Shown in pieces: positions 1-7,492 of a DNA stretch of 24,000 nucleotides. Made by a program: the position numbers and the translations under genes. Where the stretch lies: assembly GCA_964502665.1 (NCBI GenBank), contig CAZCXP010000009.1:5804-29803 (forward strand). The letters are read 5' to 3'. Origin of the DNA: an uncultured Dehalococcoidia bacterium. GTDB taxonomy: Bacteria > Chloroflexota > Dehalococcoidia > SZUA-161. Every line of letters begins with the position of its first letter. Positions within the stretch are counted from its first letter, which is position 1. A model generated the notes under the pieces. It was not told where the DNA came from, made no database searches, and saw only the letters and a program-made list of their open reading frames with translations.

Positions 1-1823
1 ATTAGCAGATGTCGCACGTCATCTTTTCCTTGGAAGTTGGTTTCCAGCAGCTCAGCTAGCTCCGACATAGTGAGCACCTGGTCATCGAAGACGAGCTTCT
101 TGATCGCTGCCAGCGAGTCGGCAGCAGTGCCCAGCCCCCTTGCTGTGATTGAGCCAAAGTTGTAGAGCGCTCCACCATCCGTTGCGTCCTTGCCGCTTTC
201 AACACAGCCCGTCAGAGTGGCGGAGACGAACGGTGCGGGGAATTCCGCTTGGTAGATAGTATCCTTCACGTTGGTCGCATCGACTGCAAAGTTCACATTA
301 TGCTCCAGCTGCTTGCGGAAGGCATCCATTACCTCATCGAAGGTCTTGAACCTTGTGGGATCTCCTGTGCGAAGCCCCTGCCCTCCCATCAGGCGATAAC
401 CCCCATTGGTGAGCACCATCTCTAAAACCCCTCCGAGCTTGAGATCGTTGCCACCGGTGCAGGCAAAGCTGTCCCCAGAGCCGGTAGGCTCAACGCAGCC
501 AACGATGGCGTAATCCCTAGCGTCTTCCAAGCTATATCCGTCGCTGAGCAACGCTGGAATGATTGCTTCATCGTTGTAGAATGCCTGTCCTGAGGTTGAC
601 CTGTAGACCCGGCATGCCCTCAGCAGGAAATCCTCAGTGGTCTTGCTATGAATCCTTATCGCCAGGTTGTTGATGACGGCCTTCAGTCGCTCGGATGCTT
701 CCAAGATCATGTAGGACAATTCGTTGGTAGCATCCTTGCCATCTCGGGTCTGGCCGCCTATGGTTATTGGCTGTGGGCTTGTGCCCAGTGTGCTTGCAAC
801 CTCGAGCCCAGCTTCAGGCAGCAACAGTATGTTTGATGTCAGCTTGAGTTCTAGCTCCTCAATAAGCTCCTGAGCCTCTTCTTTGGTGATTATCCCCTCC
901 GCAACATCTCTTCTGTAGAATGGATAGAGGTATTGATCGATCCTTCCCAGGGCGAAGGTTGCAGCCATACCATAGCTGATTTGGGCGATTACCTGGGTAA
1001 ACCACAGGCACTGCATTGCTTCATAGAATGTCCTCGGGGGGTTGGCGGGAACCCATCGACAACTCTCCGCTATCCTTTGCAACTCATCTCTTCTGTTCGG
1101 ATTTGCTTCCTTCCTGGCCAGTTTCACTGCCTCCTCAGCAAACCTGCCAGCGAAAGCGATGGCGGCCACTGAGCAGATGGTCACCGCCTGGAGGAAGTCG
1201 GCCTTCCTTCTCGCATCAGGATTTTCCGTTTGCAGTCTCTCCAGGTGCTCGGCTGCCTTCTCCTTGATTCCGTTGAAACCCTGACGCATCACGTTCCCGT
1301 GTCCCAACACCAGATGGCCTTGGACGTCGAATATGTCCGTGGCCAGGTTTGGGCAATTTCTATCGATTTCGCCGAGGCCTTTCACTTTCATCAAGCCCTT
1401 TTCGGCCCATAGGGAGGCTTTCTTGTCTCGGACCGTTCGCCCCTTCCAGTAGGGAAGAATTTCCTCCCTCAACACTTTCTTGTCATCGTCGCTTATCATA
1501 AAAGGGCGTTTCCTCTTTCCCATTGTGTCCATCTCCAGCTCCAGGACAGCGCTAATGTCGCCACGCTCAACGGGGATTACTCCAGCCAGGCGCTTGCTCG
1601 TTCTGTTGCCAACAATCAGTTCGTCTTCGTCGATGTGGATGGTCATCTCGGCAAGCGTCTTGGCCAGGGCCTTTGCTGCCCTGATAGCTGGTGGCTGCCC
1701 TTCTGTTTCCTGATAGCTGCTTGTATAGAGGCGCGCTCTCTCGACACAAACCTCATAAGGCGAGGAAAGCAGCTTCTGCTTCATTCGCTCGACCCTAGAA
1801 CGAATCGTCCCTGGCGTTTCCAC
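1..1823 (-). CDS. Glycyl radical enzyme (PFL-fold, Cys-x-Glu eliminase/dehydratase type), N-terminal ~607 aa. The C-terminus with the glycyl-radical loop lies beyond the left edge.
   Basis: My own translation of the minus strand gives an uninterrupted frame that is not in the ORF track because it runs off the edge. It starts VETPGTIRSRVERMKQKLLSSPYEVCVERARLYTSSYQETEGQPPAIRAAKAL...DELIVGN, a typical GRE N-terminus. It contains the catalytic loop DYAIVGCVEP and, further on, GCVESGKDATDGGALYNF. A GTG at 1823 follows GAGGG with a 7-nt spacer, and a TGA lies 5 codons upstream in frame. An alternative ATG is at 1784. Confidence 0.85.
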   Translation of the reverse strand, partial: METPGTIRSRVERMKQKLLSSPYEVCVERARLYTSSYQETEGQPPAIRAAKALAKTLAEMTIHIDEDELIVGNRTSKRLAGVIPVERGDISAVLELEMDTMGKRKRPFMISDDDKKVLREEILPYWKGRTVRDKKASLWAEKGLMKVKGLGEIDRNCPNLATDIFDVQGHLVLGHGNVMRQGFNGIKEKAAEHLERLQTENPDARRKADFLQAVTICSVAAIAFAGRFAEEAVKLARKEANPNRRDELQRIAESCRWVPANPPRTFYEAMQCLWFTQVIAQISYGMAATFALGRIDQYLYPFYRRDVAEGIITKEEAQELIEELELKLTSNILLLPEAGLEVASTLGTSPQPITIGGQTRDGKDATNELSYMILEASERLKAVINNLAIRIHSKTTEDFLLRACRVYRSTSGQAFYNDEAIIPALLSDGYSLEDARDYAIVGCVEPTGSGDSFACTGGNDLKLGGVLEMVLTNGGYRLMGGQGLRTGDPTRFKTFDEVMDAFRKQLEHNVNFAVDATNVKDTIYQAEFPAPFVSATLTGCVESGKDATDGGALYNFGSITARGLGTAADSLAAIKKLVFDDQVLTMSELAELLETNFQGKDDVRHLL

Positions 1824-2660: not shown

Positions 2661-3021
2661 TATCTACCAGGACTATTTCCTCATTGACTGAGAACAATGC
2701 AGCCCTTACTCTGAATCTGATAGCGTATGCCTGTCTGAAAAGACTCGCACGATGTGCAGATGAAGTGGTGGAGAGGTATGCTTTTCCTTCTGGGAGTGAT
2801 TGGCGGACTAATCTGTGGGCTAATCGACGCTCTAGCCAGCTACTGGATACGGCTTGTTGGCGTAGCAGCCAAAGGCACTTGGAAATGGTGTAGAGCCATA
2901 GTCGATGAGTTGCCATCTAGAACGCCATAAAACACTGGCCCCAAGACAAGGGCTTCCGAAGCTGTTGGAGTCCCCTAATCTACAAGATGATGCAGGAAGC
3001 CTCCGTATGCCCCAGCATTTG

Positions 3022-3726
3022 TCAGAAAGCCATGTCTGGTTTCCACACTTGCCATACCTTGCCCGCGAGGTCTGGCCCCGGCTTCAACGTCGGCTTGCCT
3101 GGCTGCCATCCGGATGGCGTTGCTTCTCCCGTTTCTCTGACATGCTGAAATGCTTTGACCTGCCGAATCAGCTCTGCAACATTTCGCCCTACAGGAGGTG
3201 TCACAACTTCCATTGCCTGAACTACACCATCTGGATCAATGAGGAAACGACCTCGAACGTCTACGCCTGCATCCTCATCGTATACTCCATAGGCCGCGCC
3301 GATTCGTCCTCCAGCATCAGAGAGCATCGGATATGGCACGCCCCCTGGCACCATCTTCGAGAGTTCTTCTTCCTGCCATATTTTATGGGTGAATCGGCTG
3401 TCGGTGCTCATTGATAGTACCTGTACTCCCAGCGACTTGAGTTCTTCATGTTTGACAGCAACTGCTGTCAGTTCTGTTGGTCAGACGAATGTGAAATCAC
3501 CGGGATAGAAACACAGTACGACCCATTGACCTCTGTAATCGGAAAGCTTGATGTTCTTGAAGCCGCCATCCACAAAGGCGCTGGCCTCGAAATCCGGTGC
3601 TGGTTTGCCAACCTGAGGAGTCATCTTACGCGCCTCCTTATGCGTTTCTAATGGTGAGGATTCTTCTAATTCCGGCAAGATCGGCCCTTTCGCTGGTTGC
3701 ACACACTGGTCTTTTGCTTCGGGCAT
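3022..3726 (-). CDS. Peroxiredoxin (AhpC/Prx1 family) with an in-frame UGA at the peroxidatic position; putative selenocysteine peroxiredoxin (PrxU-like)
   Basis: Track ORFs 3481..3726 and 3022..3411 are in the same frame (3483-3411=72). The only stop between them is the TGA at 3481-3483. Read-through gives [49 protein letters not shown], which is the canonical FTFVCPTE active site with TGA in place of Cys. The ATG at 3726 has GGAGGT 5 nt upstream. The internal ATG at 3624 ([12 protein letters not shown]) has AAGGAGG 8 nt upstream and would give a canonical 200-aa Prx with Sec at position 48. Confidence 0.8.
3453..3483 (-). promoter_or_regulatory. UGA recoding site plus candidate bacterial SECIS hairpin
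   Basis: On the mRNA the sequence reads UGA, then 10 nt, then a 7-bp perfect stem UGACAGC / GCUGUCA (3453-3470) with apical loop AGUU. The loop has G at its second position and lies 17 nt after the UGA. This geometry matches published bacterial SECIS models. Confidence 0.55.
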
Positions 3727-3755
3727 CGGATACCTCCTTTCCTATTTGCCCCACA

Positions 3756-3782: not shown

Positions 3783-5294
3783 TTACTGAGCAGTAGCCTT
3801 AACCCGCTCCTCCTGTGACATCTCAGCTAAACGCTCGACCTTCTTAACATCCAGTCCCAGCCCCTCCGCTACACGGCGGCCATACTCTGGATCTGCCTTG
3901 TAAGAGATGGCTGCCTGCCGCAACTGAATACGCTTCTGAGCGTTGCAAAGGTGGGTCGTTATATTCCCAATCAGATGGTCTCTGTCCTCGTCTGTCATCA
4001 CTCGTCTATATAATTCCCCTGCCTGGAAGAAATCGTCGTTGGGGTGAGTGTACGGTTGACGCGCCGCCAGGCCGGAAACCTCAAAGGGTGGCTCACTGGC
4101 GTCAGGCTGTGGTTCCGGCCCTCCGAAACTATTGGGGTAATAGTTAGGAGCCCCGCCGAAGTTGCCACCCACTTGCATAAACCCATCACGTTGGTAATTG
4201 TCTACCTTGGCCGCTTTAGGTCTGTTTATTGGGATCAGGTGGTAGTTAGGGCCTAGGCGATGGCGATGAGTGTCATGATAGCTGAAGAGCCGCCCCTGAA
4301 GTAGCTTGTCAGGAGATGCTGCTATACCGGGGACGAAGTTGGCGGGCGAAAAAGCGGCTTGCTCTACCTCGGCGAAGTAATTCTCCGGGTTACGGTTGAG
4401 GACCATGCGGCCGATCGTGATCGGTGGATAGTCAGCGTGAAACCACACCTTGGTTATATCAAAGGGATCAAAGCGGTACTCTGTAGCCTGCTCAGGGGTC
4501 ATGATCTGCACTTGCACCCTCCACGATGGGTACTCTCCACGTTGAATTGCGTCACAGAGATCGCGTGTCGCATGGTCTGGGTCCTCGCCCTTAAGCTTGG
4601 TCGCTTCATCGCGGGTCAAATTCTGAATCCCCTGCTCAGTTTTGAAGTGGTACTGCACCCAGAAGAATTCACCTTTGTCGTTGTACCACTTAAAGGTGTG
4701 ACTGCTGTAACCATTCATGTGCCGGAAGGTTCTGGGCGTGCCGCGGTCGGAAAACAGAATGGTCACCTGATGTATCGATTCAGGTGTTAGGGAGAGGAAG
4801 TCCCAGAACATGTCGGCGTCCTTGAGGTTGGTCTCCGGATTACGTTTCTGTGTATGGATGAAATCGGGGAACTTGAGCGGATCACGGATGAAGAAAACGG
4901 GTGTATTGTTCCCCACCATGTCGTAGTTGCCATCCTCCGTATAGAGCTTAACTGCAAAACCGCGAGGGTCCCTTTCGGCATCGGCGGAGCCCTTCTCACC
5001 CCCGACTGTGGAGAAGCGCGCAAAGACGTCCGTACGCTTCCCGATCTTTGAAAGGAATTTGGCCTTGGTGTACTTGGTTACATCGGCGGTAACCTCGAAA
5101 TAGCCATGTGCCCCTGCTCCTTTGGCATGTACTACTCGCTCTGGAATCCGCTCACGGTCAAAATGAGCCAGCTTCTCCAGCAGGTGGGCATCCTGTATCA
5201 GAGCGGGACCGGGGCTGCCCGCAGTTACGGTGTTCTGGTCGTCCTCAACCGGCTTGCCGAAATTGGTTGTCAACTTCTTGTCATGAAGCGTCAT
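3783..5294 (-). CDS. katA: Monofunctional heme catalase (small-subunit, clade-3-like), 503 aa
   Basis: The sequence has [24 protein letters not shown] (distal His), the [12 protein letters not shown] motif and [17 protein letters not shown] (proximal Tyr). I moved the start from the track's 5387 to the ATG at 5294 ([13 protein letters not shown]), which is preceded by GGGGAGGTG with a 5-nt spacer. Confidence 0.95.
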
Positions 5295-5346: not shown

Positions 5347-5374
5347 ATTATAAACATATGGGAATGCCTGTCAA
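5347..5374 (-). promoter_or_regulatory. Sigma70-type promoter for the catalase gene
   Basis: The minus strand reads TTGACA (5374-5369), a 16-nt spacer, then TATAAT (5352-5347). Both hexamers match the consensus, about 50 nt upstream of the ATG at 5294. Confidence 0.55.
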
Positions 5375-5594: not shown

Positions 5595-6632
5595 ATGGGC
5601 GGATTGTTGGAGACCCCTGACAGGGCAGTAGTGGACGGGCAAGTGCAGTTCGGCCGCTTCGCGCGGCCGTTCCGGGAGCTGAATCTCCTGGATGCACAGT
5701 GCGGGATTCCCCGACTGGGCGGGCTACGGCGTTTCCGGCTCAAGGAGTGGGAACACGTCGCACTGGTACATCACGACTGGTACCTCAGCCTGGCGATCGT
5801 TGATGTCGGGTTCCTGGTGACCTCCTGGCTGCACCTTTTCGACCGGCGGAACCACGAGGCCTTCGAGCACGTGCGGAAGCTACCGCCGGGCAGGTTTCGC
5901 GCCCCAGCGAACGTATGGGATCATTCTGGAAAGATCGAGACCAGGGGATACCGGGTGTTGGTGCACAACCACCTTGAGCGCCAGGTCCACCGGTTCCAGA
6001 TCGAGGTGCGCGGAGAGCGGTCTCTACCCGCTGTGGCGGGCACCCTGCTGCTTCACGAGGACCCTGCCCGGACGCAGCCGCTGGTGGCGCTGCTTCCCCT
6101 GGGGCCCAACCGCCCCATGTTCACGCATAAGTCAGCCTGCCCCGCCAGCGGACTGCTTGAAATAGGGGGCGAGAGGGTGGAGTTCACCCCGGACCGCAAC
6201 GTGGGGTTGCTGGACTACCACAAGGCGTACTACCCCCGCAACACCTTCTGGAGGTGGGCCACTTTCGCCACCATCGACGCGACCGGGAACCTGCTGGGAG
6301 TCAACCTCACTCACAACGTCATCGAGGACGACACGCGATTCAATGAGAACTGCATCTGGCATGGGAACTCTATCTCGCTGGTAGGGGCTGCTCGCTTCGA
6401 AGTCCCGAAGGACCCCACGCAGCCGTGGACGATTCGGACCTCCGATGAAGCCGTGGACCTGGAACTCACCCCGCAGGGATTGCGCCGGGAGCGGGTGAAC
6501 CTCGGCCTCGTCCGGTCAGCCTACGACCAGCCGTACGGCCTGTACTGCGGCACACTGGTGGATTCCGGAGGCAGGAGACACGCCGTCGAGAAAGCCTTCG
6601 GCGTGGCCGAGGACCACGTTGCGAAGTGGTAA
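5595..6632 (+). CDS. DUF2804-like protein (345 aa), function unknown
   Basis: A full-length ORF with LKEWEHVALVHHDWYLSLAIVDVGFL near the N-terminus and a C-terminal FGVAEDHVAKW. Both resemble what I recall of the DUF2804 family. The gene is strongly G/C-biased: my spot counts of 60-nt lines give 63% and 70% GC. Confidence 0.55.
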   Translation: MGGLLETPDRAVVDGQVQFGRFARPFRELNLLDAQCGIPRLGGLRRFRLKEWEHVALVHHDWYLSLAIVDVGFLVTSWLHLFDRRNHEAFEHVRKLPPGRFRAPANVWDHSGKIETRGYRVLVHNHLERQVHRFQIEVRGERSLPAVAGTLLLHEDPARTQPLVALLPLGPNRPMFTHKSACPASGLLEIGGERVEFTPDRNVGLLDYHKAYYPRNTFWRWATFATIDATGNLLGVNLTHNVIEDDTRFNENCIWHGNSISLVGAARFEVPKDPTQPWTIRTSDEAVDLELTPQGLRRERVNLGLVRSAYDQPYGLYCGTLVDSGGRRHAVEKAFGVAEDHVAKW

Positions 6633-6697: not shown

Positions 6698-7492
6698 ATG
6701 GAGGCTGACACCAGGCAAATCAACGATACCAGCTTCAAGTTCCTGCGAAGATTCAATGCTGCAATGTGTGTACTGCACCTTGTTCAAGCAGCAGCCATTT
6801 TCGCACTGAGTAATGATTACTCTGTCACCTTAACGACCTCTTTTCTCAAACGATTGCCTGGCGTGGAGTTCCCTGAGACGGCTCTGGAGGGATTATATGA
6901 TCTTCGACTCGGCCCGATGGTTGCTGTTTTTCTGCTAATATCGGCCATAGCACATTTCATTATGGCCTCGCCATTCGGGTTCCCCTGGTACGTGCGTAAC
7001 CTTAAAAAGCAAACAAACTACCTCAGATGGTATGAATACTCTCTCAGTGCTTCACTGATGGTGGTCCTCATAGCAATACTCAGCGGTATATATGATGCCC
7101 CGACCTTAGTTTTGCTTTTCGTACTAACTGCGGTGATGAGCTTCTTCGGGCTAATGATGGAGCTGCACAATCAGACTACAGAGAAGACCAACTGGACAGC
7201 CTACATATTTGGCTGCATCGCCGGTATAGTCCCCTGGATTATCATATTCTGGTATTTCTCTGCAGCTTTCGCCTCAGCAGAGGGAACGATCCCGACCTTT
7301 GTTTACTACATACTGGCCTCACTCTTTATTCTGTTCTCTAGCTTCGCCTTGAATATGTTCCTGCAGTATAGAAAGGTAGGGCCCTGGAAAGACTACCTGT
7401 TTGGCGAAAAAGTCTATATGATCCTGAGCCTTGTAGCCAAGTCGGCACTTGCGTGGCAGGTATTCGGAGGAATTCTGGCCAGGTCACTTTAA
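6698..7492 (+). CDS. Heliorhodopsin (264 aa, 7-TM retinal protein)
   Basis: Blocks closely match heliorhodopsin 48C12 as I recall it. These are FNAAMCVLHLVQAAAIFALSNDY, LRWYEYSLSASLMVVLIA (counterion Glu113), FGCIAGIVPWIIIFWY, FALNMFLQYRKVGPWKDYLFGEKVYMILSLVAKSALAWQVFGG (Schiff-base Lys248, codon 7439-7441), plus His27 and His86. A strong SD, AGGAGGG, lies 4 nt upstream of the ATG. Confidence 0.9.
   Translation: MEADTRQINDTSFKFLRRFNAAMCVLHLVQAAAIFALSNDYSVTLTTSFLKRLPGVEFPETALEGLYDLRLGPMVAVFLLISAIAHFIMASPFGFPWYVRNLKKQTNYLRWYEYSLSASLMVVLIAILSGIYDAPTLVLLFVLTAVMSFFGLMMELHNQTTEKTNWTAYIFGCIAGIVPWIIIFWYFSAAFASAEGTIPTFVYYILASLFILFSSFALNMFLQYRKVGPWKDYLFGEKVYMILSLVAKSALAWQVFGGILARSL

Follow-up and report, generated by a model that had tools for sequence, protein, structure and literature searches.

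Selenocysteine (Sec) peroxiredoxins with a TxxU active site are included among the prokaryotic selenoproteins that have an experimentally studied founding member, with Sohling et al. 2001 cited for them in three papers (PMC13188914, PMC9312934, PMC1088965). The PrxU protein of Eubacterium acidaminophilum is the founding member (Sohling et al. 2001, as cited in PMC13188914 and PMC9312934). Sec-peroxiredoxins are a long-known, curated, abundant and widespread family. We describe here a new member of this already catalogued PrxU family, which we have designated prxU, in a 24,000-nucleotide stretch of contig CAZCXP010000009.1 (GCA_964502665.1, positions 5,804 to 29,803; the whole of this stretch is referred to as the window, and all coordinates are those of the window). 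An initial annotation, made from the sequence of the window, had proposed a peroxiredoxin selenoprotein that ORF calling had split in two and had called such enzymes rare. The rarity was not borne out, as the kind is both known and common. The analysis presented below indicates that prxU is very probably a single functional Sec-peroxiredoxin gene of the PrxU family, not two fragments.

The prxU gene is a single AhpC/Prx1-type peroxiredoxin gene on the minus strand, between 3726 and 3022. Its long form has 234 codons, including that for Sec82, and ends at its own terminator, TGA 3024..3022. Two open reading frames (ORFs) had been placed in a common frame with one TGA between them, and the frame and translation check agreed with this; the ORFs at 3726..3481 and 3411..3022 (both minus strand) are in the same frame, TGA 3483..3481 is the sole stop between them and the read-through contains no frameshift or further internal stop. 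This TGA is at the peroxidatic residue, in the context PGDFTFV-U-PTEL, such that read-through restored the peroxiredoxin active site P75-x3-T79-x2-U82 (P75-G-D-F-T79-F-V-U82; PxxxTxxU), as the initial annotation had claimed. Alignment with phmmer against the PDB put the Sec82 codon on the peroxidatic Cys of human Prx2 (E = 6e-55) and human Prx4. Pfam analysis of the short form of the protein, described below, with Cys in place of Sec, revealed an AhpC-TSA domain (1.1e-38) and a 1-cysPrx_C domain. Translation and the phmmer alignment also upheld the reading GEATPSGW at the site where the canonical resolving-Cys motif is GEVCPAGW. Thr takes the position of the Cys, as it does in 24/24 sequences of our alignment A1, and the prxU product lacks the resolving Cys by which the typical 2-Cys class, with its inter-subunit disulfide, is recognised. 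The fold and active site are those of the AhpC/Prx1 subfamily, and the resolving step must differ. A second conserved thiol, Cys72 (VVLCFYP; 3511..3513, minus strand), was present in 81/82 sequences. Exactly three chalcogen positions are conserved in the family, namely Cys8 (in all long forms), Cys72 and Sec82.

The NCBIfam equivalog model NF040737 (peroxi_PrxU) has a cutoff of 270 bits, which the long form of the protein exceeded with 394.6 bits, its residues 6-232 being aligned to positions 2-233 of the 233-position profile. The runner-up model, AhpC TIGR03137, gave 191 bits, which is below its cutoff of 272. The window protein shares with PrxU the AhpC/Prx1-type domain, Sec in PxxxTxxU, the absence of a canonical C-terminal resolving Cys and the occurrence of Sec/Cys pairs among orthologues; no family-defining feature differs between them. 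Compared to typical 2-Cys peroxiredoxins such as human Prx2 and Salmonella AhpC, it has the same fold and active-site residues, whereas it carries Sec for the peroxidatic Cys, Thr for the resolving Cys and an extra N-terminal tail. A structural model was made of P0017, a Cys-form homologue that is 75% identical to the window protein (AlphaFold2, mean pLDDT 88.7). Foldseek analysis of this model revealed its best matches to be typical 2-Cys peroxiredoxins (Prx2, AhpC and Prx4) with a TM score of 0.91 and 40-46% identity, in the peroxiredoxin domain only.

A genome scan that used one genome per species was carried out, and its best 80 loci, from metagenome-assembled genomes (MAGs) of other species, held 81 peroxiredoxin genes. 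The homologous codon was TGA in 80/81 of these and TGC in the remaining one (L028), which settles for TGA the choice between TGA and TGC/TGT that the initial annotation had raised for orthologues. The 80 loci were from Chloroflexota, Thermodesulfobacteriota (deltaproteobacteria), Ignavibacteria, Zixibacteria, Acidobacteriota, Actinomycetota and Bacillota. A protein search returned full-length homologues in the thousands, with up to 86% identity, and the nearest relatives (82-86% identity) had TGA in all cases. The Cys partners of the Sec/Cys pair, with TGC or TGT, were found in L028, Aggregatilinea lenta and others. When 23 homologues were aligned, many of the closest showed 'W' at the catalytic position and others Cys; Trp was stored at this residue in 13/23 of these public proteins (P0001-P0008, P0012, P0014, P0018, P0092 and P0109), and L085 also bears it. 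The DNA reads TGA in these entries, and at the P0001 locus translation of the TGA-containing gene with table 11 does not yield the stored protein. The 'W' is a gene-calling artefact (code 4), which probably arose when short metagenome contigs were called under a code that reads TGA as Trp.

The part of the gene downstream of the TGA was compared with nine relatives over 148 codons. In 8/9 comparisons nonsynonymous divergence (pN) was 0.08-0.12 and synonymous divergence (pS) was 0.74-0.84, which is saturated; the ninth, L001, had a pN of 0.20, for which an unchecked indel offset is suspected. These values (pN ~0.09, pS ~0.8) point to strong purifying selection on the ~150 codons after the TGA, and a low pN with saturated pS argues that the downstream part is translated. 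TGA is also the commonest stop in the window, ending 12/19 of the ORFs checked, prxU itself (3024..3022) included. Its use as an ordinary stop excludes a reassigned code, so that decoding of the internal TGA must depend on a local signal. A mechanical search of the window for other TGA-split genes gave nine candidates, and all of them except prxU had coordinates inside those of another long ORF; translation of one of them, 855..1409, revealed nothing recognisable.

The local signal is best compared with the Sec insertion sequence (SECIS) of E. coli fdhF, a stem-loop that begins about 11 nt after the UGA and has a GGUC loop, of which G23 and U24 are needed by SelB. The corresponding candidate in prxU is a hairpin of the bacterial SECIS (bSECIS) type, UGACAGC-AGUU-GCUGUCA, at 3470..3453 on the minus strand (-10.7 kcal/mol). 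It has a perfect 7-bp stem (UGACAGC/GCUGUCA), starts 10 nt after the TGA (CCAACAGAAC) and has the apical loop A-G-U-U at 3460..3463; stem, spacing and loop G were found in the sequence as the initial annotation had described them. Like the fdhF element, the prxU stem-loop has an R-G-U-Y loop with an invariant G-U, here at +22/+23 from the U of the UGA. It differs from fdhF in that there is no evident bulged U and the stem is short (7-8 bp), and the binding of SelB to it is putative.

An ungapped alignment of 51 nt from 82 sequences (A2) was used for explicit pair counting on a nine-pair structure, with 500 shuffles and slid versions of the structure as controls. Wobble positions ahead of the hairpin took all four bases and those inside it were restricted. 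Paired cells made up 87.7% of the total, whereas the share was 80.8% for the shuffles and 19-77% for the slid controls, and 6/9 pairs had changed on both sides. The covariation score was 0.274 compared to 0.140 in shuffles, so the covariation of the hairpin, for which the initial annotation had looked to orthologues, was found. None of the 500 shuffles reached the observed value for this score or, more widely, for four of five whole-structure measures; 11/500 did so for the fifth, which is the number of pairs altered on both sides. Pair 21-30 was G:C in 70 sequences, A:U in seven, G:U in three and C:G in one, and was never unpaired. Positions 24 and 27, fourfold-degenerate wobble positions that flank the loop centre, covaried as A:U (45), G:C (34) or G:U (2) and never as A-C. 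The loop centre itself, G25 and U26, was invariant in the 82 sequences. The loop of the family is R-G-U-Y, being AGUU in 45/82 and GGUC in 34/82. These patterns argue for a conserved structure with compensatory changes at synonymous sites. In four Cys-form genes, which are a small control, the hairpins were weaker or altered (-4 to -8 kcal/mol compared to -10.7 to -12.5 kcal/mol). The only TGC gene of the 81, in L028 (between 3244 and 3294), has kept a full GGCGGC-GGUC-GCCGCC hairpin and looks like a recent replacement of Sec by Cys. An Rfam search of the whole window gave no family at gathering score and left the hairpin unmatched, and when 3380..3540 was searched permissively all hits, mir-194 among them, were at chance level.

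The reading of prxU as one selenoprotein gene follows from the TGA in 80/81 orthologues, the Sec/Cys pairs, the selection downstream, the covariation of the hairpin, the use of TGA as an ordinary stop and a NF040737 score above cutoff. The proposal of a selenoprotein mis-split by ORF calling is therefore supported by codon, selection, hairpin, stop usage and family model, all of which agree. Several results weigh against it. Neither a tRNA gene nor any of selA, selB, selC and selD was found in the 24-kb window. Folding of the single 61-nt sequence was unremarkable (z = -0.73) and RNAalifold found no consensus structure in the 51-nt alignment. Some Cys forms retain a weaker hairpin, and part of the pairing potential is supplied by the Ala-rich peptide with its GCN repeats. 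Since a single sequence gives the hairpin no statistical significance, the case for it is made by comparison across genomes.

Three other explanations of the internal TGA were weighed against the selenoprotein reading. The gene could be a pseudogene in which a nonsense mutation turned the TGC or TGT of a Cys-peroxiredoxin into TGA and left two decaying ORFs; that the halves are called separately and that Sec machinery was not found within the 24 kb would both fit this. An identical TGA in orthologues from unrelated phyla would not be expected of decay, nor would the lack of any further stop or frameshift, a pN of ~0.09 with saturated pS beyond the TGA, or a hairpin that is conserved and covaries. 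TGA conservation, covariation and downstream selection effectively refute the pseudogene, and we regard it as very improbable. A little less improbable, though still doubtful in the extreme, is a UGA that is recoded to something other than Sec, either as Cys through the Sec pathway under selenium limitation or as near-cognate Trp, or a UGA for which Sec decoding was recently lost, leaving a mostly truncated product. The rendering of the codon as W by metagenome gene callers would speak for such recoding, but it is the code-4 artefact described above and the codon is TGA. Moreover, an enzyme with Trp as its peroxidatic residue would be inactive, most of the ORFs checked in the window end in TGA, and a SelB-type hairpin with its invariant G-U has been retained.

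TGA and TGC differ by a single base, and the TGA could in principle be a sequencing or assembly error for TGC in the contig. The nearest relatives (82-86% identity) uniformly have TGA, however, and the window retains the perfect hairpin that accompanies the TGA forms, which makes the chance of such an error negligible. With prxU taken as a selenoprotein gene, its annotation becomes one gene with a transl_except for Sec at 3483..3481 instead of two hypothetical fragments, and the gene implies a Sec-decoding trait in the source organism.

The following course of events is proposed for prxU on the basis of sequence comparison and of knowledge of the family. When the ribosome reaches UGA 3483..3481, the hairpin at 3470..3453, with its exposed loop G-U ~20 nt downstream, would recruit SelB-GTP-Sec-tRNA(Sec), and Sec would be inserted in place of termination; Sec insertion in the source organism would thus be SelB-dependent. 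The second TGA, 3024..3022, has no such hairpin and would terminate. By analogy with the family, Thr79 and Arg158 in the PxxxTxxU/Arg site would activate the Sec82 selenolate, which would reduce H2O2 or organic peroxides and itself become a selenenic acid. With Thr in place of the canonical C-terminal resolving Cys, the oxidised selenium needs another thiol. This could be the conserved, tethered Cys8 in the tail, it could be Cys72, or thioredoxin could act directly, and thioredoxin is the presumed final reductant. Two isoforms are probable, one of 234 aa from ATG 3726 and one of 200 aa from ATG 3624.

Both of the Shine-Dalgarno (SD)/ATG pairs that the initial annotation had placed at 3726 and 3624 are present in the sequence, and selection was seen at both starts. 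For the long form, the SD GGAGG (3737..3733, minus strand) is 6 nt ahead of ATG 3726..3724. In 64/69 orthologues the long-form ATG likewise has an SD-like core ahead of it, which argues that the 234-aa form is real; the NF040737 profile also includes the long form. The internal SD, GGAGG at 3637..3633 (minus strand), is 8 nt ahead of the ATG at 3624..3622, which encodes Met35 and is the probable start of the 200-aa short isoform. A start codon near Sec-47 was found in 78/82 genes (ATG in 67), and in 75/78 of these genes it was preceded at 7-16 nt by an SD-like core. The density of SD cores along the gene peaked at this internal start, with 155 hits in 75 genes compared to 56 at the position with the second-highest density. 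The internal GGAG motif was kept across three reading registers, for example as K-E-x and K-G-G. Additionally, the Glu codon at the internal SD was GAG rather than GAA in a ratio of 74:12, compared to 538:665 elsewhere (Fisher p 2e-14, uncorrected for phylogeny). Taken together these findings suggest that the internal SD is under selection at the nucleotide level and that the gene yields both a 234-aa and a 200-aa isoform. The internal SD/ATG was absent in the few signal-peptide forms seen (L039, L055 and three of four planctomycete forms). No published account of dual starts or of a conserved internal start in PrxU was found in the literature.

The long form exceeds the short form by 34 aa, which include Cys8. 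In the window protein this tail carries the motif K5-D-Q-C8-V-Q-P-A-K-G-P-I16 (3679..3714, minus strand; Cys8 codon 3705..3703), which falls inside the NF040737 profile and is followed by a variable linker of ~20 residues. The consensus M-x-E-x-K-D-x-C-V-x-P-A-x-G-P-I was present in 74/81 genes. Among these 74 the C and G were absolute, and the other residues were V in 72, P in 63, A in 60 and P in 65, in order along the motif. Despite the unconserved sequence of the linker, the spacing from Cys to Sec was fixed at 74-78 residues. The earlier speculation that the long form and its Cys8 matter gains support from the motif and this spacing. The description of Cys8 as a lone Cys holds for the 34-aa extension, of which it is the only Cys, but not for the protein, in which Cys72 is near-invariant. 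The PrxU of E. acidaminophilum is recorded as 203 aa in length and presumably corresponds to the short form; the window gene and 74/81 relatives differ from it in that they also encode the N-terminal Cys tail. The tail motif was also seen behind signal peptides in the planctomycete Cys forms P0026, P0036, P0044 and P0051.

No published function was found in the literature for the N-terminal Cys tail of PrxU. Judging from its conservation, Cys8 may be a tethered resolving thiol, which is attractive and unproven. A fuller proposal is that PrxU is made as two isoforms from the two SD/ATG pairs, that Cys8 of the long form is a built-in resolver which forms a selenenylsulfide with Sec82, and that the ratio of the two starts tunes the redox behaviour of the oligomer. 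We put this forward tentatively and consider it unlikely as a whole, although the conserved tail motif, the nucleotide-level selection on the internal SD, the absence of the canonical resolving Cys and the missing internal SD/ATG in the few signal-peptide forms seen all speak for it. Against it, natural short-only genes carry just Cys72 and Sec, and confidence in the tail of the P0017 model was modest (pLDDT 49-70), its only assigned structure there being a lone beta-bridge residue, number 13. We know of no resolving residue in an N-terminal tail that has been described for the AhpC/Prx1 class. The Cys tail and the second start could explain how a Sec-peroxiredoxin completes its cycle without the canonical resolving Cys. 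Within the literature found, only the conserved Cys tail and the nucleotide-level conservation of the second start go beyond PrxU as described. Across the family, the SECIS loop is sharply defined as R-G-U-Y and most members keep both the Cys-bearing tail and the internal start.

Human Prx4 is likewise extended at its N-terminus, where a lone Cys precedes the peroxidatic residue by 73-74 residues, and phmmer put Cys8 on Cys51 of Prx4, which forms inter-dimer disulfides of unclear role (PMC3824332). The two tails differ in that a profile hidden Markov model (HMM) of the bacterial tail alone, run against a Prx4 sequence entered by hand, gave no match up to E <= 1000. As the tail-only HMM was blank and Foldseek aligned the peroxiredoxin domain only, homology between the tail and the Cys51 region was rejected and the likeness was treated as coincidence. 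In one of the related loci, L046, two Sec-peroxiredoxin paralogues were found with their Sec codons at 677 and 3226. The second copy has neither the N-terminal tail nor Cys8 nor Cys72 and has a C-terminal Cys in KVCEIW, and may, judging from its sequence, represent a subtype that resolves through another residue.

Analysis of the region flanking prxU revealed that the next gene upstream, also on the minus strand and 56 nt away, encodes a catalase (3783..5294; Pfam Catalase 1.7e-200). A sigma-70-like promoter, TTGACA-16-TATAAT, with 12/12 consensus positions, was found upstream of the catalase (5347..5374, minus strand). This perfect match is inside the longest catalase ORF, and the real start is therefore taken to be ATG 5294, the first Met after the promoter-like site, and not TTG 5387. 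A terminator-like hairpin with a T-rich tail (2938..2953, minus strand) follows the prxU stop at ~70 nt. As promoter and terminator are consensus matches only, the kat-prxU operon is one that we infer; the two genes are probably co-transcribed. A linkage of catalase and prxU as a trait of the family was considered and rejected, as only the window and L027 show the pairing, which is thus local. At L027 (between 1132 and 2587) the catalase upstream of prxU is in two ORFs, owing to a frameshift or a stop.

Recurrent neighbours in the related loci were rubrerythrin (11), a pyridine-nucleotide disulfide oxidoreductase (9), desulfoferrodoxin (8), a flavodiiron-type protein (7), a Fur-family regulator (6) and a ferritin-like protein (6), a set which is the oxygen-defence repertoire of anaerobes. 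Catalase and prxU would then form part of the peroxide and oxygen defence set of an anaerobe, probably one of the Dehalococcoidia-class Chloroflexota, and a Sec-dependent peroxidase beside catalase would be an addition to the oxygen defence of such an organism.

On the other side of prxU, the ORF between 1854 and 2660 (minus strand) gave no Pfam match with either its full 268 aa or its C-terminal 88 aa. Beyond it, between 1 and 1836 (minus strand), are 612 codons of an ORF for a PFL-like glycyl radical enzyme, cut by the left end of the window. Its nearest named relatives, at 86-89% identity, were from Dehalococcoidia MAGs, the range being 86-92% when metagenome contigs were included, and this ORF is the best pointer to the source lineage. 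The contig of the closest MAG relative (89%, GCA_030619685.1) was not syntenic with the window and had no prxU. A few kb from catalase and prxU, a heliorhodopsin gene (6698-7492, plus strand; Pfam 1.1e-97) adjoins a DUF2804 gene (5595-6632, plus strand), although the organism seems to be anaerobic. Further along the window, between 12104 and 23273 on the minus strand, a glycosyltransferase cluster encodes GT1, GT2, two PMT_2, a flippase, a phosphodiesterase/sulfatase-like protein and a methyltransferase. This region, together with that between 10543 and 12078 on the plus strand, also encodes a cohesin-domain protein and a DUF1616 protein, and the whole is probably a cell-envelope glycosylation locus.

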